From NCBI GenBank assembly GCA_964016885.1, contig OZ024744.1, positions 50,034,001 to 50,098,000 of the forward strand: a stretch of DNA of 64,000 nt. The letters run 5' to 3'. How positions within the stretch are numbered: position 1 is the stretch's first letter; every line of letters begins with the position of its first letter. The translations under genes and the position numbers were made by a program. Positions 3,920-55,399 of this stretch are shown here, in pieces. Below the pieces are notes generated by a model. It ran no database searches. It was not told the DNA's origin and worked only from the letters and a program-made list of their open reading frames with translations. The stretch comes from Eledone cirrhosa. Lineage: Eukaryota.

Positions 3920-4014
3920 ACCCCGACGGCTGAGCTCAAGCCGTTTCGACGGCTAATTCTGTACTTAATGAAAAATTAATTCTGGTATTTAAATAGCCGA
4001 ACTTATCAAGGGGT
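3920..4014 (-). ncRNA. type I hammerhead ribozyme, U3-A8 core variant, long stem II (family C)
   Basis: Minus strand: ACCCC-TTGATAA-GTTCGGCTA...TAGCCGTC-GAAA-CGGC(TTGAGCTCA)GCCG-TC-GGGGT; GUC cleavage triplet. Family also at 54060-54188 and 61980-62174. Confidence 0.7.
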
Positions 4015-4780
4015 AATTCCATATATGGTCAAAGAGATAATCACCAGGATTGGTCACATCACAAGTTAGTAGTAAATCTGTGATGGCAAGTTGGTGGGGG
4101 AAGGGGTAGCTAAACCTGCCACTAGGAGAAAAGGGGAGAGGGGGTGGAATAGACCCATTTAGGCGTTGGTAGTGCCAGCTACAGCTGGGTGTGAGGTCAA
4201 AGAGGATAATGGGGAGGGGGAGGAGGAGGAGGTCGAAACGGTAAGTAGAACAATGAAAGGTAAAACTGTAAAAGGTACTGAGATAGAAATTAAATAAACA
4301 AATAAGTGAATAAAAGAATAGATAAATAAAGTTAAAAAAATATATATATATATATATATATATATATATAATGTAGAATAAAAAAATAAATGATAATAAT
4401 AGAAAAAAACTAGGTGGGACGGAAATAAAGGGACCCTTATATGAGGTATAAGTGCGTGTATCGTACGGTGACGGGTCAACAAAAGGGGGGCGAGAATACT
4501 AAAGAGACTACCACGAAAATAATAAAGGTTTCTACCCCAAACACAGGGCCAGCAACCACCCAGTGCAAGAAAGTAAACTAGTACGAGAATATAATTCAGG
4601 GTCCTGCAAAAAAATACTGGTGCTAACTCTAAGGGTACCGCCACGAAACAAAAGGTCTTATACAAGCTACATGAAAGATCGTACAAAGTAAAAGTAAAGA
4701 ATGGAAAATTAATACAGGAACAAATATATATATATGAATATATATATATATTCATATATATTCACAGATATATATATATA

Positions 4781-5840
4781 TCATCATCATCATCAACATC
4801 ACCGTTTTACGCCCGTTCTTCCACGCTAGCATGGGTTAGACGGGTTGTCCTGTTGTGGGCAGTGTCTGGTCGGCTGACCATGCCTTGCTCATACAGGAAC
4901 TGATTTGGCTTGATTTCTACAGCTGGATGCCCTTCGTAACACCAACCTCATTTACAGTGAGTGCTGGGTGCTTTTACGTGGCGCCTACACGTCCACTTTA
5001 CAGTGTAGGCTGGGTGCTTTTTTGCCGTGGCACCTCCACGACCACCTTGCGGTGGGGCGTGTGGGGGCATATTATCTATATACTTCAGCTTGTACCCATG
5101 GGAGGTCGGGTACTCTCTATTACTGCGTGACGCCAGAGGTCACGGTCGTGTGTCATTGCCTTTGAGAGGTGTAAATGGGTAAGGTCAGCTTTTATCACCT
5201 CATCCCAGGTCATCTTGGGTCTCTCCACTCCGCGGTTTCCATCGACTTCTAGTGCTCTGCACCTTTTTATGCAGCTGTCATCCTTCATACGCATCACATG
5301 TCCATACCAGCGCAATCACCTCTCCTGTACACAGCATTTGATTCCTCTTATGTTCAGTCTCTCTCTCAATTCATTTATGCTTTGTCATTCACGTATATTA
5401 CTGTTACACATCCATCGGAGCATGCAGGCTTCCTTTCTCTCTAATCTACGTAAGTCTTCCACCTTCAGTGCCCAGATCTCACTACCATGCAACATCGCTG
5501 TTCGGATACACGCATCATACAGTCTGCCTTTCATTCTGAGGGAGAAGCCTTTTGCAGCTAGCAGTGGTAGTAGTTCCCTAAACTTCTTCCATCCCGTTCT
5601 TACCCTAGTTATTGTACTTTCTAAACACCCACCTCCGCTGCTAATTCGGTCACCTAGGTAGCAGAAGCTGTCTACTGTTTCTACAGAGCCCTCCCAGAGA
5701 TTGGTGGTACTTGTTTCCTGTGGCTGTTTGCTGCTTGCTGTCCCAGTACAGCTGCTGCATGTGAAGCCTACATTCTTAGTTAAGCTTCCTGAGATCCCGC
5801 TACATCTCTTGTGTACCCATTGTTTGCATTTGGGGCAGAG
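4781..5840 (-). mobile_element. RTE-clade LINE, 5'-truncated, with PHD-like Cys cluster and (GAT)n tail
   Basis: CPKCKQWVHKRCSGI, FCYLGDRIS, MLHGSEIW, RWYGHVMR; (TCA)n tail at 4781. Confidence 0.9.
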
Positions 5841-5859
5841 AACATATATATATATATAA

Positions 5860-6152
5860 ATAATAATAATGAAATTATTGTGTACAGTGCTCAGGTGCAC
5901 TACAACTTGTCAAAGGCTCATGTATAGTACATAGAATAATATACAAATGTCAGGGAAGTGAATAGTGTATGAGTCATGATATACATGTGTGTATGTGTAT
6001 GGAGGGGGAACATTAGGTGAAGTTTTGGCGAATCTCGGGAAGCATGGAGGTTTTAAAGGATGCAGTGACTCAACAGCTAACAACTGATGCAGGTAGTTTG
6101 TTCCATGCTTCAGCAACTCTGAGCGTGAAAAAATGTTTCGAAAGTCATGGGA
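5860..6152 (-). mobile_element. CR1-like LINE 3' end
   Basis: Minus frame HFFTLRVAEAWNKLPASVVS..TASFK, a typical CR1 ORF2 C-terminus. Confidence 0.7.
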
Positions 6153-52059: not shown

Positions 52060-53750
52060 TAAAGCCATACGGACACCCAAAAACAATGATCAGGTGAGAA
52101 AAATGATGGCACATGCAAAAGGGGCTAGTATTAAAACTACCCTAAAGGGCCATATGTTTAAATTTAACTTAAAGATCTACACCCAAAATGAGGGAGCAGC
52201 CATTGGTGTTAGCATAGCTGGTGATGTTGCCAATCTATTTATGGTATGGTGGGAGAGAGGATTCAGAGAACTACTTGATGAGAGCTCCATAGACCTCGTC
52301 ATGTACTCTCCTTACGTAGACGATATTAATATAGTACTAAGGACACTCCCATAAGGGAGTACTAATAAACATGATTTAGAAAATAGCACAATGGAAAACA
52401 TCCAGCAGATAGCTAACTCCATACACCAGAGTATAACTGTAACTGTTGACTACCCTTCCAAACACCTTTACAATAGATTACCAGTATTAGACACGGAACT
52501 CTGGATTAACACTATAGACGAGATGGCCCAAATTCTCCACTCACACTACGCTAAACCCATGGCCTCTAAATACCTGATACTCAAAAATTCAACAATGTCC
52601 AGTAGTGCTAAGTTTAATATTCTGATTGCAGACATGGTAAGAGTGATGAAGAATGTGTCCTGCATGTGCGACCCAACTGGAATGGAAAGACACATCCAAC
52701 ACTTCCTCAACCACATGCCATTCTCTGGCTACAACCAAAGAGACAGAATTAGAGTATACAAAGGAGCCACGGAGAAGTATAAGACCCTCATAGAAATTGA
52801 CATGAAAGAGATATGTTCATTTTACAGGAGTAAATCATGGAATAGCTTAGATAGGACTAAACATAAGATAGGGAAAGCCACTTCATAGTACGACAACCAG
52901 AGATACCAGAGTGTCATGTTCGTGGATGCTACCCCTGGAGGGAAATTAGCTAACCAATGTAGAAAGGCCCTAAGAAAGACACATTTAGAGATTGAAGTGG
53001 TAGAAAAGCCAGGAACTACCATAAAATCCCTGATCAGCAAGACATACCCCTTTAAGAAAACCCATTGTACAAATAAAAAAATGTGTTATATGTAAAATGA
53101 ACCCCCAGATAAATTGTAAAACTAGAAATGTAGTCATAGCATAAGATGTATAAGGGAACTTGCAGAAACATGACAACGACAAACAAAGGTGAGACAGCTC
53201 GAAGCATAGGAGAAAGAATAGACCAACACTGTGGGAGGGGGGTGGGCTAAAAGGACAAAAAATGGTTCAGTACTATACGAACACGCCAGACAAAGACATG
53301 ACGGTAATATAGACAACATAGAAATTAAAATAATATCTACGCATAGAAATGACTCAAGAGGTAGGCAAATCAAAGAAGCAACTGAGATAGAACTAAGAAG
53401 ACCGAAATCGAACAGAAAGACCGAATGGAATAACAACAACAACCATACCCAAATAAACAATACTGGCTTAAGGGAAATATAAATAAATAAATAAATAAAT
53501 AAATATATATACACAAGTACAATAACAACAAATACATATAAACACACACTAGTGAACAAAAATAGAATACGAAAACACATACACTCAAACGCGAACACAC
53601 GCAAACGCATGTGCAGAGACAGAGACAAGAAGAAATAAATTAATTAAAATAAAAATGACGTAGACATTACAGTACAATACAATAGGAGAAAACATAATAG
53701 TACCACTGATGATGTTGCAGATGTGCAACGAAAGAACTTTGATAGACTAT
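52060..53750 (+). mobile_element. Penelope-like element (Neptune-like), decayed RT + GIY-YIG, ending in an HHR
   Basis: YTQNEGAAIG, YVDD, LPVLD, GETARSIGERI, RQIKEA. Confidence 0.88.
53701..53744 (+). ncRNA. minimal hammerhead ribozyme at the PLE 3' end (family I)
   Basis: TACCA-CTGATGA-T-GTTGCA(GATG)TGCAAC-GAAA-GAAC-TT-TGATA; one stem I mismatch. Confidence 0.7.
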
Positions 53751-54390
53751 ATATATATATATATATATATATATATATATATATATATATTTATATTTGT
53801 ATTTTTAACCGATGGTCAGTGAATGGTAAACATTGATTGCCAAATAAATTAACTATGGAGATATAAAAGATACAGAAGCGAAAACCAACCAAACAGTGAG
53901 TGTGTTCTGTTATTATTTCTGGCAATATTTTAACAATATGACCCTGCCCAAGTATAACAATATTTGTTTCGACACACGATTTCATATAAAAGAAACCTTC
54001 CAAAACAAATATATATATATATATATATATATATATATATATATATATATATATATATCCGGCCGTTTCGGAGTTCAGCCACCGGGGTCGTCCTGACTCT
54101 TTTCCTAATGCCAACTTCTACTATTCTAAATATCGAGTACTCTGGTGCGTTATGGTCCACCTAGTTCGTTACCACACTTTCTTTGTTATATATATATATA
54201 TATATATATATATATATATATTAGTATTAAGGATACTATTTATGGTTATGTATGTAATAAAACCTTTAATGGTAATATATTATTTATACAAACCTTAAAT
54301 AGTGAAAGATAGTCATTAATTACTATCCTATTACCAGTAAGATAAATAGCTCAATGTAATAACATCAGTTGTTTTACAGAGCAGTTATAT

Positions 54391-54736
54391 AGAGATTACA
54401 ATAATCAAAGTTCAGTTTAAGTCATTTATTTGCTTACAATTGTTTCCTCCAAACCGAGGTTTGAATTCTTCGGAGCAACTATTTACTGATCTATAACATA
54501 CTTGACCTCCTTTTCAACCCAAGAGACATATAAAACATATGCGCATATTGATCAACAGTGGGCACCCCACTGTTGATCAATATGCGCATATGTTTTATAT
54601 GTCTCTTGGGTTGAAAAGGAGGTCAAGTATGTTATAGATCAGTAAATAGTTGCTCCGAAGAATTCAAACCTCTGTTTGGAGGAAACAATTGTAAGCAAAT
54701 AAATGACTTAAACTGAACTTTGATTATTGTAATCTC
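54391..54736. repeat. foldback palindrome, ~170-bp arms, one hammerhead per arm (54430-54478 minus, 54650-54698 plus; U4C core)
   Basis: TTGCT-CCGAAGA-ATTCAAAC(CTCT)GTTTGGAG-GAAA-CAATTG-TA-AGCAA. Confidence 0.88.
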
Positions 54737-54872
54737 TCTCTCTCTCTCTCTCTCTCTCTCTCTCTCTCTCTCTCTATATATATATATATATATATATATA
54801 TATATATATATATATATATATATATATATATATATATATTTAAAAGAATAGAGGTGTAACACACAAGTTATG

Positions 54873-55399
54873 ATATATTGGTAAACGGAAAAGAAAATGC
54901 TGACAAATTTTTCACAGTGAAAAATAGTTTAATTAGGAATAAGTGAGAATTAGTAATAGTATTGGTTAGTATTCAGTTTTGGTTTTAAGTTTCACCGGTT
55001 GCGCATTTCTAATGCTTTTCAAAAATAATTTTGAGATAGAGCGTCCGTAATGTTTGCTCTAATCTGATTAGTTTTGGAAATTCTACCTGTTTTTATGTTA
55101 AAAAAGTGGCTCCAGCGGTATTAAAATAAGTTTTGCGCCAACTTATTTTAATACCGCTGGAGCCACTTTTTTAACATAAAAACAGGTAGAATTTCCAAAA
55201 CTAATCAGATTAGAGCAAACATCACGGACGCTCTATCTCAAAATTATTTTTGAAAAGCATTAGAAATGCGCAACCGGTAAAACTTAAAACCAAAACTGAA
55301 TACTAACCAATACTATTACTAATTCTTACTTATTCCTAATTAAACTATTTTTCACTGTGAACAATTTGTCAGCATTTTCTTTTCCGTTTACCAATATAT
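54873..55399. repeat. foldback palindrome, ~260-bp arms, related to the family D pseudo-LTR, with decayed U3-A8 HHRs
   Basis: TTT-TTGAAAA-GCAT(TAGAA)ATGC-GCAA-CCGG-TA-AAA at 55247-55282; mirror copy at 54990-55025. Confidence 0.88.

Follow-up and report, generated by a model that had tools for sequence, protein, structure and literature searches.

Positions 3 and 8 of the hammerhead ribozyme core pair in the active fold (PMC3884650), and the replacement of the canonical C3-G8 pair by U3-A8 is already published both for Penelope-like elements (PLEs) and for natural hammerheads. In Schistosoma mansoni, the Cercyon PLEs carry U3-A8 hammerheads with ~1,300 hits that a canonical descriptor missed (Cervera and De la Pena 2014, PMC4209133), and several natural hammerheads covary from C3-G8 to U3-A8, with earlier in vitro activity cited (Perreault et al. 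2011, PMC3088659). What hammerheads do for PLEs has been called unclear (PMC8557442). Here, a 64-kb window of the Eledone cirrhosa genome (assembly GCA_964016885.1, contig OZ024744.1, positions 50,034,001 to 50,098,000, forward strand) was found to contain four type I hammerheads with U3-A8, each located in the pseudo-long terminal repeat (pLTR) of a PLE. These predicted ribozymes belong to two unrelated PLE lineages, in which U3-A8 replaces C3-G8 and is probably maintained by weak selection for self-cleavage.

The motifs, assigned to families C, D, and D' in the window and E elsewhere in the genome, resemble the Cercyon hammerheads in being type I, in lying within pLTRs, and in carrying U3-A8 for C3-G8; moreover, the short palindromic helix III and the dimer model described for Cercyon match families D, D', and E. 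In contrast to Cercyon, they occur in other PLE lineages, in another animal, and in far more copies; helix III of family C is a full hairpin, and two further features, an A13C substitution and a C3·A8 mismatch present at the family level, are not mentioned in the portions of the Cercyon report that were available (PMC4209133). Likewise, the available text on natural U3-A8 hammerheads does not link them to PLE subfamily history and does not include A13C among its variants (PMC3088659). No report of C3·A8 (CUGANAA) families or of A13C families was found in the open-access literature.

When the window was scanned with a descriptor that left positions 3 and 8 free, 15 rows came back: the four U3-A8 motifs (minus strand at 4009 and 18667, plus strand at 31771 and 55250), six C3-G8 loci spread over eight rows, and three loose, chance-like hits whose positions 3/8 do not pair. 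Both the scan and direct reading of the sequence thus place U3-A8 where CTGANGA would be expected in families C and D, as the first-pass annotation had proposed. All four motifs have the type I order, with three helices around the core, G10.1-C11.1, A15.1-U16.1, and an NUH cleavage site, and a Watson-Crick 3-8 pair is possible in 4/4. The family C hammerhead (3920..4014, minus; U3 at 4009, A8 at 4004, U at position 7) combines stem I ACCCC/GGGGT (4014-4010/3924-3920), a long stem II, GAAA, a hairpin stem III of 5-6 bp, and a GUC site at 3925. It lies in a 3' pLTR fragment of a Hydra-like PLE (3822..4174, minus; blastn to L097/L099) that ends in a (TA)n-rich repeat. Further family C fragments, 5'-truncated within the hammerhead, occur at 61974-62213 (an inverted pair) and 54071-54192.

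Both family D motifs in the window are minimal hammerheads with stem II GCAG/CTGC and a GUA site. The first (18635..18670, minus; U3 at 18667, A8 at 18662, palindromic stem III ACCGGT, GUA site at 18638) lies in the 3' part of an element (18497..20229, minus) that retains a GIY-YIG remnant (20229-19966), the 3' untranslated region (UTR), and the pLTR. The second (31768..31803, plus; U3 at 31771, A8 at 31776) has its stem III hexamer mutated to ACTGGT and lies in a pLTR piece (31587..31878, plus) on the 5' side of, and inverted with respect to, a broken Neptune-like open reading frame (ORF) with reverse transcriptase (RT) and endonuclease remnants (28319..31228, minus). This ORF remnant is kin to both D and D', with 36-58% amino acid identity to D' ORF pieces and 81% DNA identity to the family D endonuclease/3' UTR of L001. 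The D' motif (55247..55282, plus; U3-A8 at 55250/55255, GUA site at 55279) has a 3-bp U-A stem I and stem II GCATT/AATGC. Its TTGAAAA core and covaried stem II had been noted in the first-pass annotation, which overlooked a second core change, A13C at 55271, that turns GAAA into GCAA; G12-A13-A14 is intact in families C and D. An inverted D' twin (54990..55025, minus) with G at position 17 (54993) completes a back-to-back pair of pLTR fragments (54775..55399; 93-95% identity to the L091 pLTRs) that is typical of truncated-inverted PLE insertions. A13C also creates a second palindrome, TGCGCA (55266-55271), which overlaps stem II and, in a dimer, might form at the expense of the hammerhead fold. 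The length of stem I varies: the D and D' copies of the window have 3 bp, the main D subfamily 4 bp, and family C 5 bp.

Full-length and open copies elsewhere in the genome indicate which elements carry these motifs. In L091, a full-length D' copy, tandem hammerheads flank the RT and GIY-YIG regions; in L091/L094, the RT is followed by a C-terminal GIY-YIG with the Cys-rich CX2-5CxxC linker that is a Neptune-clade trait. For these elements, Pfam gave GIY-YIG above the cut-off (E 3.8e-7) and RVT_1 below it (E 5e-6). Compared by eye, the D-type RT3 region looks like that in the Neptune rows of PMC8557442 Fig. S1, and family D endonuclease remnants are present in both L001 and the window. L267, a young family C copy, carries an open frame of 786 codons that encodes a DKT motif and a C-terminal endonuclease; read back from its first ATG, the frame remains open for ~70 codons and reaches the 3' half of the hammerhead that lies upstream. 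A Pfam search of two family C fragments found no family. As described for Hydra-clade PLEs (Craig et al. 2021, PMC8557442), family C combines a C-terminal GIY-YIG, DKT, matching RT3/RT4 (by eye, against the Hydra rows of Fig. S1), a divergent RT4, an ORF of <3 kb, (TA)n targets, and a 3' hammerhead, although it has RWR at the place of the RWK given for the clade. The Hydra rows of File S2 in the same source have CTGANGA in 26/26 cases, in contrast to the U3-A8 or C3·A8 of family C. Assignment of family C to the Naiad clade, which would need an N-terminal GIY-YIG, was rejected as its endonuclease comes after the RT, and the Nematis label was ruled out by domain order and the Fig. S1 comparison. 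Non-LTR retrozymes, with their short tandem non-coding units, were likewise rejected for C, D, and D', each of which has copies with RT and endonuclease. On these features, with reference rows compared by eye, family C (Hydra-like) and families D/D' (Neptune-like) appear to be unrelated PLE lineages at the clade level. Copies of all three families end at (TA)n repeats, often as back-to-back pairs. Families D, D', and E have the traits of minimal dimer-type PLE hammerheads (a short palindromic helix III, a pLTR location, and frequent inverted pairs), while family C, whose helix III is a hairpin, is not of the dimer type.

Whether U3-A8 is a state of the families or of individual copies was addressed by genome-wide pattern counts (3.0 Gb searched), with core states tallied by hand over the first 100 matches, nearly all from one chromosome. 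The family D pattern, with positions 3, 7, and 8 open, matched 11,945 times, the D' pattern matched 4,401 times, and the family C pattern with T at position 10.2 matched 2,600 times; each reversed-pattern control gave 0, which argues that the motifs are not chance matches. U3-A8 was present in 99/100 listed family D matches and in 100/100 listed D' matches, 98/100 of the latter with A13C. Only 81 of the 11,945 family D matches lack U3; all 81 keep A8 (41 with C, 20 with G, and 20 with A at position 3) and none is C3-G8. A looser D-lineage pattern yielded 25,638 matches and revealed a sister subfamily likewise carrying A13C. Therefore, a CTGANGA consensus with the window copies as independent mutants is excluded, and U3-A8 is a family state in these PLEs rather than decay. 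The first-pass claim that it is fixed in two unrelated families is borne out for the separate lineages and for family D; it does not extend to family C, in which ~21% of copies are C3·A8.

Transposon copies mutate neutrally once inserted, so the evidence bearing on selection is the family-level pattern and not the number of copies. D and D' share 74% identity across the hammerhead region. A search for further U3-A8 motifs with the ACCGGT palindrome and other stems gave 722 matches, many being mutated D copies, compared with 21 in controls. Stem II is GCAG/CTGC in D, GCATT/AATGC in D', GATG/CATC in family E, and GATTAA/TTAATC in one further family; stem I and position 7 likewise differ between families. 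Family E keeps U3-A8 with C at position 7, and its ORF (L317) is collinear with the D' pieces at 43-72% identity. Thus, Neptune-like families with ~45-70% protein identity retain U3-A8 while their stems and position 7 change, a pattern that is consistent with selection on the pair. Every family seen retains U4, G5, A6, A9, G12, A14, and the NUH site, a constancy partly built into the search patterns. The proposal that the double change is selected rather than decayed accordingly fits its retention across families with such diverged proteins, while D', with A13C and a 3-bp, all-A-U stem I, provides weak evidence of a working core.

Family C departs from this uniformity. Among 100 listed matches with T at 10.2, 77 are U3-A8, 19 C3·A8, 1 C3-G8, and 3 other; a non-T base at 10.2 gave a further 4,695 matches, of which the 100 listed comprise 80 U3-A8 and 20 C3·A8. 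C3 occurs in 569 of the 2,600 T-type matches, with A8 in 98/100 of those listed. The family thus totals at least 7,295 copies, ~1,500 of which (~21%) are C3·A8 by extrapolation and cannot form a Watson-Crick 3-8 pair. A dedicated C3-G8 pattern had 94 matches with only ~11 scattered C3-G8 copies, and a C3-G8 subfamily was rejected: these copies fit single mutations among the ~1,500 C3·A8 copies, and G8 is present in 0/100 listed non-T matches. The C3·A8 subfamilies might not be broken if C3 paired with G7 in a shifted register, or if a protein rescued the fold. G7 does occur in 93/100 listed C3 copies with T at 10.2 and in 18/20 C3 copies without it, yet the young subfamilies often combine U3 with G7 as well, so that G7 is simply the lineage background, and the shift would require losing the position-7 spacer, for which no support was found. 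A tight C3-G7 coupling, suggested at first when only 43 U3-G7 copies were seen, was likewise abandoned as many U3-G7 copies carry a different base at 10.2. A functional mismatched core of this kind is therefore very improbable. Position 7 of the U3-A8 copies of family C can be any of the four bases.

The order in which these states arose was examined in 42 fetched family C copies with >=600 aligned bases. The ORF DNA tree is a ladder in which an old U3-A8 clade is followed by a C3·A8 grade, with a young U3-A8 clade nested in the grade (support 99); the youngest U3-A8 subfamilies include an intact ORF. With positions 3, 7, 8, and 10.2 masked, a pLTR tree of these copies recovers the identical order (support 100), and this agreement indicates that recombination does not account for it. 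A single C3 clade was rejected by the approximately unbiased test (p = 7e-7, from quick searches; two grade rows that are single-copy variants, one U3 and one G8, were left out) and by diagnostic sites (16 vs 3). Copies in the oldest groups diverge more from their consensus (0.047 and 0.037) than those in the youngest (0.006), with 3-12 copies per group and a mixed oldest group. Synonymous to non-synonymous codon changes between group consensuses number 19:8 during the C3·A8 phase and 33:8 at the step out of it. The nested position of the young U3-A8 clade suggests that family C likely re-formed its 3-8 pair after a mismatched phase during which the ORF was under purifying selection.

The root of family C bears on how many such changes took place. 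Amino acid polarity at the root is 8:4 towards the C3·A8 group, and Hydra-like elements of this genome (~40% identity to family C) adjoin C3-G8 motifs. A 591-bp tandem repeat with U3-A8 was rejected as a root, having no detectable sequence in common with the family C pLTR. Two points temper the proposed restoration: six Hydra-like outgroup pieces (~40% identity) put the root where the old U3-A8 clade parts from the C3·A8 grade, with bootstrap values of only 50 and 30, and C to U is a common transition, so that a single return to U3 could be chance. Either root position entails at least one C3·A8 to U3-A8 change.

A selective preference for U3-A8 over C3-G8, for instance because a slower ribozyme leaves uncut RNA for reverse transcription in autonomous elements, could also account for this direction of change. 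Family C lineages at C3·A8 did move to U3-A8 and not to C3-G8 (the ~11 copies noted above), U3-A8-type matches are abundant in the D lineage, and uncut RNA was the main insertion substrate in vitro in the available account of a PLE hammerhead (PMC11167929). However, a preference cannot be shown by one or two events. The Hydra-like relatives in this genome have C3-G8, and so does each of the 26 Hydra rows in File S2 of PMC8557442, a sample biased by its canonical descriptor. U3-A8 also recurs in a non-coding tandem repeat, so the variant is not special to autonomous elements. Rate tuning, which the first-pass annotation had suggested, is consequently quite unlikely, and a pair that is usually kept, lost for several subfamilies, and regained points to weak selection for cleavage instead.

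From what is known of hammerheads, U3-A8 would supply the 3-8 pair by which nucleotide 8 is positioned for catalysis. The family C motif could fold alone (the predicted minimum free energy structure of the window copy, -23.1, forms stems I, II, and III as a monomer), while D-type motifs, in which the monomer helix III has only two base pairs and a loop, may act as dimers by pairing their ACCGGU palindromes, following the model of PMC4209133; the ACCGGU self-duplex of D, D', and E is predicted to form 6 bp at -8.3 kcal/mol. Cleavage would then cut element units out of tandem transcripts, as PMC4209133 proposes. The trees suggest that such cleavage is helpful but non-essential for transposition, since family C lineages with C3·A8 would have made ~1,500 copies with an ORF under purifying selection before regaining U3. 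D' lineages spread carrying the additional A13C change. U3-A8 constructs are reported to be active in vitro (PMC3088659). The Poseidon PLE hammerhead of Anolis likewise depends on its 3-8 pair, but it is a canonical C3-G8 motif tested in vitro (PMC11167929).

Besides the narrow chromosomal source of the tallies, several observations weigh against this reading. For the D and D' copies in the window, the predicted monomer of lowest energy has a hairpin that covers the core and competes with the ribozyme fold; stems I and II of D' alone are predicted at +1.1 kcal/mol. In a deep-mutation study, one hammerhead construct was rescued only by C3G/G8C, the other single and double mutants of the region having low activity (PMC9901934), so U3-A8 may be weak. 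A natural CUGANAA hammerhead is reported inactive (PMC8490949), and a PLE hammerhead was protein-assisted, its core mutants not blocking insertion in vitro (PMC11167929). These observations count against strong activity. The last two reports, together with A13C in D' and its sister subfamily, the 3-bp stem I of D', and the tolerance of C3·A8 in family C, could mean that the motifs no longer cut: the fold would be kept as a protein binding or priming signal while the core drifts by mutation bias, with U3-A8 appearing compensatory only by inheritance. Such drift is difficult to reconcile with the constancy of the catalytic core residues and the NUH site while position 7 and the stems vary, even if partly imposed by the patterns, or with the recurrence of U3-A8 in three lineages without common sequence beyond the motif, and this explanation is considered unlikely. 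Retention of U3-A8 by weak selection for self-cleavage is therefore preferred.

The genome also contains further hammerheads with either pair. The 591-bp tandem repeat, which lacks a long ORF and was not seen in the window, occurs at L338:909-1499 (G000:C1 near 11.42 Mb) and in L011, L012, and L210; it has 7,182 pattern matches, with U3-A8 in 99/100 of those listed, and in its hammerhead stem II is long and helix III is a palindrome of 10 bases. Its layout is like that of metazoan non-LTR retrozymes, whose units of 150-450 bp are shorter (PMC7229834); families C, D, and D', by comparison, are autonomous PLEs. In another hammerhead-bearing repeat (L169:822-916, minus, and 1269-1363, plus; L102:3546-3640), one copy is U3-A8, its inverted partner is U3·G8, and a relative (L285) is C3-G8. 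In the window, canonical C3-G8 hammerheads at 32647-32718 (minus) and 33285-33356 (plus) form an inverted pair of a retrozyme-like repeat family that elsewhere builds ~466-469 bp tandem arrays. Further C3-G8 hammerheads of PLE type lie at 1096 and 27621 (plus) and at 43052 and 32170 (minus), that at 27621 adjoining Hydra-like ORF remnants (26453-27358, minus). Other PLE ORF remnants occur at 58393-59778 (plus, Hydra-like), 20362-21400 (plus, Neptune-like), and 52355-52888 (plus).

As anticipated in the first-pass annotation, CUGANGA-only searches miss the U3-A8 motifs; in this genome they would overlook tens of thousands, including the 25,638 D-lineage matches, most of the 7,295 in family C, and the 7,182 in the tandem repeat. 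An Rfam scan of the window (E up to 5) had as its only hammerheads, among the 150 of 248 matches listed, the C3-G8 inverted pair described above (32647-32718 and 33285-33356). The chances are about even that family C represents a compensatory change in progress, passing from C3-G8 through C3·A8 to U3-A8, in which successive autonomous subfamilies underwent ~1,500 transpositions with a likely near-dead C3·A8 core and U3-A8 was restored, possibly twice; together with D' and its A13C, it would amount to a series of natural mutants from which hammerhead cleavage emerges as beneficial to Penelope transposition but dispensable for it. This series, rather than the known U3-A8 swap itself, is the more useful part of the finding: family C offers natural, nearly identical versions of the motif in all three core states (U3-A8, C3·A8, and C3-G8), with a tree that orders them and an intact young ORF, making the role of hammerheads in PLEs directly testable.

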